NCBI RefSeq assembly: GCF_003334305.1
Contig: NZ_QOWS01000037.1
Direction: 5' to 3' (one strand)
DNA: 24,028 nt
From: Escherichia coli
GTDB taxonomy: Bacteria; Pseudomonadota; Gammaproteobacteria; Enterobacterales; Enterobacteriaceae
In this document: one piece after another, positions 22,491 to 24,028 of the stretch
Position numbering within the stretch: position 1 is the first letter of the stretch
How the letters are laid out: each line of letters opens with the position of its first letter
Made by a program: the position numbers and the translations under genes
Notes under the pieces: generated by a model
Database searches by the model: none
What the model was told of the DNA's origin: nothing
What the model saw: the letters and a program-made list of their open reading frames with translations, nothing else

Positions 22491-23860
22491 TAGGCAGCTT
22501 AACCGCGCGCATCTTCGCCATCTTCTGGCTGACGCTGGCGCTGGTGTTGATGTTGGTTTTGATGTTACCCAAGCTCGATTCACGCCAGATGACCGAGCTT
22601 CTGGATAGCGAACAGCGTCAGGGGCTGATGATTGAGCAGCATGTCGAAGCGGAGCTGGCGAACGATCCGCCCAACGATTTAATGTGGTGGCGGCGTCTGT
22701 TCCGGGCGATTGATAAGTGGGCACCGCCAGGACAGCGTTTGTTATTGGTGACCACCGAAGGCCGCGTGATCGGCGCTGAACGCAGCGAAATGCAGATCAT
22801 TCGTAACTTTATTGGTCAGGCCGATAACGCCGATCATCCGCAGAAGAAAAAGTATGGCCGCGTGGAACTGGTCGGTCCGTTCTCCGTACGTGATGGCGAA
22901 GATAATTACCAACTTTATCTGATTCGTCCGGCCAGCAGTTCTCAATCCGATTTCATTAACTTACTGTTTGACCGCCCGTTATTACTGCTGATTGTCACCA
23001 TGTTGGTCAGTACGCCGCTGCTGTTGTGGTTGGCCTGGAGTCTGGCAAAACCGGCGCGTAAGCTGAAAAACGCTGCCGATGAAGTTGCCCAGGGAAACTT
23101 ACGCCAGCACCCGGAACTGGAAGCGGGGCCACAGGAATTCCTTGCCGCAGGTGCCAGTTTTAACCAGATGGTCACCGCGCTGGAGCGCATGATGACCTCT
23201 CAGCAGCGTCTGCTTTCTGATATCTCTCACGAGCTGCGCACCCCGCTGACGCGTCTGCAACTGGGTACGGCGTTACTGCGCCGTCGTAGCGGTGAAAGCA
23301 AGGAACTGGAGCGTATTGAAACCGAAGCGCAACGTCTGGACAGCATGATCAACGATCTGTTGGTGATGTCCCGTAATCAGCAAAAAAACGCGCTGGTTAG
23401 CGAAACCATCAAAGCCAACCAGTTGTGGAGTGAAGTGCTGGATAACGCGGCGTTCGAAGCCGAGCAAATGGGCAAGTCGTTGACAGTTAACTTCCCGCCT
23501 GGGCCGTGGCCGCTGTACGGCAATCCGAACGCCCTGGAAAGTGCGCTGGAAAACATTGTTCGTAATGCTCTGCGTTATTCCCATACGAAGATTGAAGTGG
23601 GCTTTGCGGTAGATAAAGACGGTATCACCATTACGGTGGACGACGATGGTCCTGGCGTTAGCCCGGAAGATCGCGAACAGATTTTCCGTCCGTTCTATCG
23701 GACCGATGAAGCACGCGATCGTGAATCTGGCGGTACAGGATTGGGGCTGGCGATTGTTGAAACCGCCATTCAGCAGCATCGTGGCTGGGTGAAGGCAGAA
23801 GACAGCCCGCTGGGCGGTTTACGGCTGGTGATTTGGTTGCCGCTGTATAAGCGGAGTTAA
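22487..23860 (+). CDS. cpxA: Envelope-stress sensor histidine kinase CpxA
   Basis: 457 aa, MIGSLTARIFAIFWLTLALVLMLVLMLPKLDSRQ...; H-box SHELRTPLTRL, HATPase G-boxes (DDDGPGV, GGTGLGLAIV); start overlaps the cpxR stop by 4 bp (ATGA). Confidence 0.97.
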   Translation: MIGSLTARIFAIFWLTLALVLMLVLMLPKLDSRQMTELLDSEQRQGLMIEQHVEAELANDPPNDLMWWRRLFRAIDKWAPPGQRLLLVTTEGRVIGAERSEMQIIRNFIGQADNADHPQKKKYGRVELVGPFSVRDGEDNYQLYLIRPASSSQSDFINLLFDRPLLLLIVTMLVSTPLLLWLAWSLAKPARKLKNAADEVAQGNLRQHPELEAGPQEFLAAGASFNQMVTALERMMTSQQRLLSDISHELRTPLTRLQLGTALLRRRSGESKELERIETEAQRLDSMINDLLVMSRNQQKNALVSETIKANQLWSEVLDNAAFEAEQMGKSLTVNFPPGPWPLYGNPNALESALENIVRNALRYSHTKIEVGFAVDKDGITITVDDDGPGVSPEDREQIFRPFYRTDEARDRESGGTGLGLAIVETAIQQHRGWVKAEDSPLGGLRLVIWLPLYKRS

Positions 23861-23871
23861 ACTCCGCATTT

Positions 23872-23952
23872 GTAGGCAGGATAAGGCGTTTACGCCGCAT
23901 CCGGCATTTGAGCAGGATGCCTGATGCGACGCTGATAGCGTCTTATCAGGCC
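23872..23952. repeat. BIME (REP pair) downstream of cpxA
   Basis: GTAGGCAGGATAAGGCGTTTACGCCGCATCCGGCAT (23872-23906) and GATGCCTGATGCGACGCTGATAGCGTCTTATCAGGCC (23916-23952): two REP-type imperfect palindromes in inverted orientation. Preceded by hairpin GCGGAG-TTAAA-CTCCGC (23851-23867) spanning the cpxA stop. Confidence 0.65.
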
Positions 23953-23970
23953 TTGTATTATCCCTCCAGT

Positions 23971-23998
23971 GCAGAGAAAATCGGCCAGTTTTCTCTGC
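23971..23998. repeat. Perfect 10-bp inverted repeat
   Basis: GCAGAGAAAA-TCGGCCAG-TTTTCTCTGC; no U-run on either side, so not a canonical terminator. Confidence 0.45.
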
Positions 23999-24028
23999 CT
24001 GCAGTCCGCATGCCGTATCGGGCCTTGG

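Follow-up and report, generated by a model that had tools for sequence, protein, structure and literature searches.

Insertion sequence (IS) 621, an element of the IS110/IS492 family, was reportedly described by Choi, Ohta and Ohtsubo in 2003 as inserting at a specific site inside the repetitive extragenic palindromic sequences (REPs) of Escherichia coli. Here, the known IS621 system is compared with a 24,028-nt stretch of E. coli DNA (contig NZ_QOWS01000037.1, assembly GCF_003334305.1; hereafter the window), which ends downstream of the gene cpxA and carries there a perfect palindrome (positions 23971-23998) whose role a first-pass annotation, made from the letters alone, had left unclear. 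The left end of IS621 is 191 bp long, and a small-RNA-seq peak covers ~177 bp of it (Durrant et al., 2024, PMC11208160). The wild-type 177-nt IS621 bridge RNA (bRNA) and a 100-bp donor DNA are printed in the supplement of the accompanying structural study (Hiraizumi et al., 2024, PMC11208158). The bRNA is transcribed from a sigma-70-like promoter, which is rebuilt across the junction of the right and left ends (RE-LE) in the excised circle, and its transcription and binding by the recombinase were followed by small-RNA-seq and microscale thermophoresis (PMC11208160). A bRNA 5' stem-loop was described in both papers (PMC11208160; PMC11208158) and is conserved across 103 orthologues (PMC11208160), which also gives the sequence of a natural IS621 target.

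Comparison of the window with these data indicates that its last 75 bases (23954-24028, plus strand) are the beginning of the 191-bp left end of a 1279-bp IS621 element clipped by the window end, that this element was inserted at the CT core of ATCAGGCCT, followed by AC, in the second REP downstream of cpxA, and that the palindrome is the bRNA's 5' stem-loop; the probability of this reading is about 0.97. Positions 23968-24028 are identical in 61 of 61 nucleotides to nt 1-61 of the 177-nt wild-type bRNA (bRNA nt n corresponds to window position 23967+n), and in a matching genome (locus L001), where the 75 bases are found unchanged at 6255-6329, all of the bRNA is present at 6269-6445 (177/177). 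The left-end half of the published donor oligonucleotide begins at window 23954. In L001, the left end measures 191 bp, which together with the bRNA length of 177 nt agrees with PMC11208160, and is followed by a 326-amino-acid open reading frame (ORF) for the recombinase, containing the PF01548 and PF02371 domains and matching the NCBIfam model NF033542, “IS110 family RNA-guided transposase,” with 254.5 bits (cut-off 140 bits). The elements of the published layout follow one another on the plus strand. A promoter scan found the -10 box TATTAT of the bRNA promoter at 23956-23961; the 5' stem-loop region occupies 23968-24000, with the palindrome corresponding to nt 4-31; and the numbering of PMC11208158, transferred by sequence identity, places the 5' part of the target-binding loop (bRNA nt 34-61 of 34-98) at 24001-24028 and the left target guide AUCGGGCCU (bRNA A50-U58) at 24017-24025. 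Folding of the single sequence and the RNAalifold consensus for 10 orthologues agree in showing the 5' stem-loop and two multi-loop domains. The sequence, its position, the -10 box, the CT core and the target ATCAGGCCTAC are the same as in the published work (Durrant et al., 2024, PMC11208160; Hiraizumi et al., 2024, PMC11208158); the difference is that those studies used plasmid RE-LE constructs, whereas the window shows a natural integrated chromosomal copy, clipped by its edge.

The insertion is best seen by comparison with other strains. A megablast of window positions 23700-24028 (329-nt query) against 5,426 complete E. coli genomes gave matches in all of them, most of which end at query position 254, that is, at window 23953, the last base of the CT core (23952-23953) and of the left target (23945-23953). 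The palindrome is present at the cpxA-yiiM locus in 141 of the genomes and absent there in 5,285. In strain H2, which has an empty site, GTCTTATCAGGCCT is joined directly to ACACTCCGGGGGTTATTTTCC and the sequence runs into the stop codon of the convergent gene yiiM; the junction itself reads TTATCAGGCCT followed by ACACTCC, the general form being ATCAGGCCT followed by ACACTCC, and the natural IS621 target, ATCAGGCCTAC, is found within the empty site. In strain 165, whose sequence matches 23700-24028 with 100% identity, 1279 bp stand between GGCCT and ACACTCC with CT at both ends, such that the empty junction GGCCT/ACACTCC is replaced by the filled ones, GGCCT/TGTATT and GTATCT/ACACTCC. Within the insert, a gene with the annotation “IS110-like element IS621 family transposase” runs in the direction of cpxA. 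The CT core at each junction, and an empty site in other strains that is the same apart from the insert, are the marks of a precise IS621 insertion; that the element is complete in the source genome we infer from the best-matching genomes. The REP-internal position does not differ from that in the first description of IS621, and the second REP at this locus is one of many REP sites. The 75-bp end occurs in 12,993 copies in 2,233 of the 5,426 genomes (median of 5 per genome, up to 27), which answers the BLAST proposed in the first-pass annotation for deciding between a repeated family and a locus-specific sequence: it is a repeated family, the IS621 left end. The annotation had located the palindrome correctly downstream of cpxA, although it is there only through the insertion. 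A possible role of the palindrome for the convergent gene, also suggested there, did not hold, as the rest of IS621 with the transposase gene intervenes and yiiM lies 1.2 kb away, beyond the element. The annotation had also named membership in a neighbouring coding sequence as an observation that would speak against it; the palindrome is non-coding, yet it does belong to a neighbouring mobile element. A minus-strand frame over the palindrome (ending ...ENWPIFSALEG*) was rejected as a gene, being antisense to the IS621 left end and matching no annotated gene.

The arms of the palindrome, GCAGAGAAAA (23971-23980) and TTTTCTCTGC (23989-23998), are 100% complementary and 8 nt apart, as the first-pass annotation had stated. 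In the plus-strand RNA, an added U-G pair extends the stem to 11 bp (23971-23981 with 23988-23998) and leaves a 6-nt loop, CGGCCA (23982-23987). The predicted folding energy is -14.5 kcal/mol on the plus and -13.2 on the minus strand; the U-G closing pair is possible on the plus strand only, which agrees with the direction of the bRNA. The tails flanking the hairpin, CUGCAGUC on the plus and ACUGGAGG on the minus strand, have no U-tract. Perfect 10-bp inverted repeats with loops of 3-10 nt occur at four loci in the window, compared with 0.21 per dinucleotide shuffle.

The covariation within the stem was sought in other genera, because the IS621 copies of E. coli are too similar: the stem is invariant among them, and only the loop of a decayed remnant found in ST131-type strains differs. 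Orthologues were obtained by a plain 19-mer scan of species-representative genomes and by a plasmid tblastn, the latter giving one useful sequence, from E. cloacae pCC32 (82%), and they come from Enterobacter, Pseudescherichia, Superficieibacter, Pseudenterobacter and Klebsiella. The alignment comprised ten distinct orthologous left ends from about five lineages, so the numbers of covarying pairs are not numbers of independent events. RNAalifold recovered the 11-bp stem unaided. In 4 of its 11 pairs both sides change (G-C/A-U/U-A in one, G-C/A-U in two and A-U/G-C in another), and one further pair alternates between C-G and U-G. In the stem, 98.2% of cells are paired, against 38-56% in slid controls, in which the 3' stem partners were moved by 1-3 columns, and the observed covariation score was reached by none of 500 shuffles. 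The loop CGGCCA (alignment A3, columns 29-34) is invariant in 10 of 10 orthologues despite the covarying stem, and may have a sequence-specific role. Kissing of this loop with the guide through GGCC in both was considered and dropped, given that the Klebsiella guides GUCCGGGCU lack GGCC and the loop there is the same. Distant orthologues (44% protein identity) also have a hairpin just past a -10-like box, with an unrelated loop, for example TATAGT...ACAGAAC-AGATTG-GTTCTGT in locus L017.

The same left ends allow guide and target to be compared. In the window, the guide AUCGGGCCU and the target ATCAGGCCT are identical at 8 of 9 positions; the guide has the sense of the target top strand and would pair with the bottom strand, with a single G-T wobble at position 4, where a wobble is documented as tolerated. 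The guide had been reported by the repeat finder, without prior knowledge, as a copy of direct repeat D4. Among the non-E. coli lineages, the guide agrees with the flanking target of the same copy at 9 of 9 positions, with ACCCGGCCT, ACCGGGCCT or GTCCGGGCT as the sequence. Nine copies of an IS621 orthologue in Klebsiella michiganensis DSM 25444 (L023-L031) all lie directly after CTGTCCGGGCT, matching the guide GUCCGGGCU. The znuB-ruvB spacer of ST131-type strains (L003 and L006, 1801-1879) holds a 79-bp remnant of the IS621 left end, interrupted by IS1397, an IS that itself targets REPs; the remnant's guide AUCCGACCU agrees with the flank ATCCGACCT beside it, and the loop of its 5' stem-loop is changed to CGGTCA. 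An IS621-like copy on the E. albertii plasmid pEA32_1 (L013; ~70% protein identity) adjoins an IS3-family element and retains only the 3' third of the bRNA and the N-terminal half of the recombinase. A Burkholderia plasmid copy could not be aligned, nor could the products of a recombinase scan of viral contigs, which were relatives at 33-38% identity and one IS621 edge. Five Moorena loci (L032, L033, L036-L038) matching the 19-mer CAAGGTTGGTTTCACTATG, the bRNA 3' end plus ATG, were set aside as chance or an unrelated repeat, there being no IS110 ORF downstream; the recurrence of this 19-mer as a cyanobacterial repeat is probably a coincidence.

Other explanations of the palindrome were considered. 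A stable hairpin between two convergent genes could be a terminator, or a 3'-end-stabilising hairpin, of yiiM or cpxA, and its stability on both strands (-14.5 and -13.2 kcal/mol) would suit such a role, as would its likeness to Rho-independent terminators as a stable intergenic hairpin. However, it has no U-tract on either strand, unlike two other G+C-rich perfect 10-bp palindromes of the window with A- and T-runs at their flanks, the top of its stem is A/U-rich, and it stands at the 5' and not the 3' end of its transcript. The sequence is, moreover, missing from the cpxA-yiiM spacer in 5,285 of the 5,426 genomes, in which both genes are present, and travels with IS621 to thousands of unrelated sites, and yiiM lies 1.2 kb off on the far side of the element; a role in ending either transcript is scarcely credible. 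That the repeat arose by chance and has no function might be argued from the abundance of short palindromes (58 six-bp inverted repeats with loops of 3-7 nt in the window). Nevertheless, a shuffled window would yield only 0.21 perfect 10-bp repeats with short loops, this one is conserved in thousands of IS621 copies and shows compensatory changes in other genera, and it is identical to part of a characterised RNA, which leaves no room for chance.

It could also be considered that the palindrome acts as double-stranded DNA, either as a subterminal repeat bound by the recombinase or as an operator. Lying 18 bp from the IS end, a perfect inverted repeat would in principle be capable of binding a dimer, and its 6-nt centre CGGCCA is invariant in 10 of 10 orthologues. 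The arms, however, vary and stay complementary, with double changes in four pairs; complementarity kept through such changes points to a base-paired stem and not to a site read by a sequence-specific protein. The U-G pair of the E. coli sequence would be A-C if the other strand were folded. The published data lead in the same direction: donor recognition depends on RNA-DNA pairing about the core, and with bRNA provided in trans a donor of 22 bp, which does not extend as far as the palindrome, is enough (PMC11208160), while the cryogenic electron microscopy (cryo-EM) structure of the synaptic complex shows no protein on this DNA segment (PMC11208158). A DNA site is accordingly very improbable, if slightly less so than a terminator.

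Several observations weigh against the assignment to the IS621 bRNA or limit its reach. The window covers 61 of the 177 bRNA nt and contains no recombinase gene. The natural -35 box is 1.2 kb from the -10 box, at the other end of the integrated element. A search against Rfam 15, with the cut-off relaxed to E <= 1, gave no match to the left end; only the REP pair upstream of it was matched. The ten aligned left ends come from about five lineages and represent few independent events, and one stem pair is A-C in two Klebsiella rows. Finally, an RNA-stabilising role of the hairpin, taken up below, is our inference only.

In the published mechanism of the element, the bRNA binds the IS621 recombinase, which combines a DEDD RuvC-like domain with a serine Tnp domain. 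The target-binding loop (from 24001, with the left target guide at 24017-24025) pairs with both strands of the REP target, the donor-binding loop, which lies beyond the window, pairs with the joined IS ends, and the two loops jointly guide recombination to the CT core; no DNA is read by the 5' stem-loop. Its deletion weakened the binding between bRNA and recombinase and slightly lowered recombination in E. coli (PMC11208158). It is invisible in the cryo-EM map, and the authors suggest non-specific contacts with its backbone (PMC11208158). As the stem begins 3 nt in from the bRNA 5' end, we propose that it may also protect the RNA from 5'-end-dependent decay. Stabiliser hairpins at the 5' end are known from bacterial RNAs, for example in the 5' untranslated region of ompA. 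The bRNA stem resembles them in its closeness to the mapped 5' end; the effect published for it is on recombinase binding (PMC11208158).

Upstream of the element, the 3' end of cpxA (coding sequence 22487-23860, plus strand; taken from the ORF list and annotated as cpxA in matching E. coli genomes) is followed by a pair of REPs. An inverted-repeat search and RNA folding show a 7-bp hairpin, GCGGAGU-UAA-ACUCCGC (23851-23867, plus strand), whose 3-nt loop is the UAA stop codon of cpxA (23858-23860); it folds with -11.4 kcal/mol (z = -5.0 against shuffles), and the sequence directly 3' of it is AUUUG, not a U-tract, and it was not scored as terminator-like. REP 1 (about 23871-23907) lies on the minus strand, in inverted orientation, and REP 2 (about 23919-23953) on the plus strand; they are probably of the Y and Z type, respectively. 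REP 1 was recognised by its inverted repeats and as the first hairpin of a match to Rfam RF02564 (naRNA4), and REP 2 by its inverted repeats, the same match and the empty-site comparison; the stem of REP 2 is intact and its last bases, ATCAGGCCT, are the IS621 left target, while its final AC now lies past the IS. As an extragenic pair of inverted imperfect palindromes of ~35 nt from a many-copy family (REP-like matches to the 329-nt query are found in a median of 29 places per E. coli genome), the two form a bacterial interspersed mosaic element (BIME). The naRNA4 match (23875-23952) scores 78.6 bits over the full 77-position model, above the gathering score of 59.5 bits. The model was built on a REP pair, and the likeness, two inverted imperfect palindromes, reflects REP-pair sequence and is not proof that this copy gives rise to a nucleoid-associated RNA. 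The palindrome at 23971-23998 is outside the BIME and has no similarity to REPs.

An intrinsic terminator scan of both strands from the cpxA stop to the window end (23850-24028) found none, and a mapped cpxA terminator was not found in the literature. With no canonical intrinsic terminator, the earlier proposal that cpxRA termination is Rho-dependent or REP-assisted remains a reasonable guess. The hairpin over the stop codon, the two inverted REPs, the 10-bp repeat, its lack of a flanking U-run and its dissimilarity to REPs were all seen correctly in the first-pass annotation; its observation is confirmed and its interpretation partly supported. At the empty site, the BIME is wedged between two stop codons (window 23851-23875; L002 3254-3269), REP 1 starting ~11-15 nt past the cpxA stop and REP 2 ending ~10 nt before that of yiiM. 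REPs within ~15 nt of a stop codon can reportedly stall ribosomes (Liang, Rudd and Deutscher, in 2015, are said to have shown this). The IS621 insertion abolishes the closeness of REP and stop codon for yiiM only.

Further observations concern other parts of the element and of the window. At the IS621 right end, outside the window (L001 7440-7469), a minus-strand terminator-like hairpin, ACAGCGCCGTCAGGCGCTGT followed by TTTTTTT, stands just past the transposase stop; it is turned against transcription arriving from the yiiM side and might keep antisense read-in out of the element. In the sbp-pfkA region, a second BIME contains two unoccupied targets of the IS621 type, ATCCGACCTAC (18817-18827, plus strand) and ATCAGGCCTAC (18863-18873, minus strand), and the Rfam family ES036 (CssrF) matches 18829-18870. 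The minus-strand target is occupied by IS621 in an IMG/VR contig (L011), the flank of which is identical to window 18865-18964. The perfect 10-bp repeats at 197-222 and 8620-8643 are G+C-rich, are flanked by A- and T-runs and look like bidirectional intrinsic terminators, and a perfect A+T-rich palindrome, TTCTTCAACAATTGAAGAA, is found at 13977-13999.

One question raised by this copy is its expression. The natural -35 (TTGCAG) lies in the right end and is joined to the -10 only in the excised circle, as seen from the circle-junction promoter (PMC11208160) and the donor oligonucleotide (PMC11208158). In the window, a promoter scan shows that the loop of the REP supplies CTGATA 18 bp from the -10 box of the element. 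Such a match is close to what chance would give once the -10 is fixed (p ~0.1, estimated for 4 or more of the 6 positions matching at any one of three spacings), and little weight is therefore given to a hybrid -35; promoter-like sites in the scan were also no more numerous than in shuffled sequence. IS621 lies in sense orientation directly after cpxRA with no intrinsic terminator between them, so transcription passing the BIME would enter the element in the sense direction. On the basis of this orientation and of the CTGATA before the -10, it is conceivable, if rather unlikely, that the integrated IS621 here expresses bRNA, and perhaps recombinase, without a prior circle. According to a 2025 preprint, another IS110 element needs full-length bRNA for its excision, which makes the source of bRNA in integrated copies a fair question.

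The palindrome is an already known feature of the bRNA rather than a new signal belonging to cpxA or to the gene next to it, and nothing new on bridge RNAs follows from it; the covariation and the guide-target matches reproduce the published model on fresh enterobacterial copies. For the locus, it means that a puzzling palindrome is resolved to a known feature and that the window breaks off within a mobile element. The cpxA-yiiM spacer, natively 106 nt long, is split in this strain by 1.3 kb of IS621, which changes the reading of the cpxA 3' region. If the integrated copy were expressed without a circle, this would bear on the origin of the bRNA used in excision, given a natural promoter that is present in the circle alone, and read-through from the Cpx operon, which is induced by envelope stress, could supply the first excision here.

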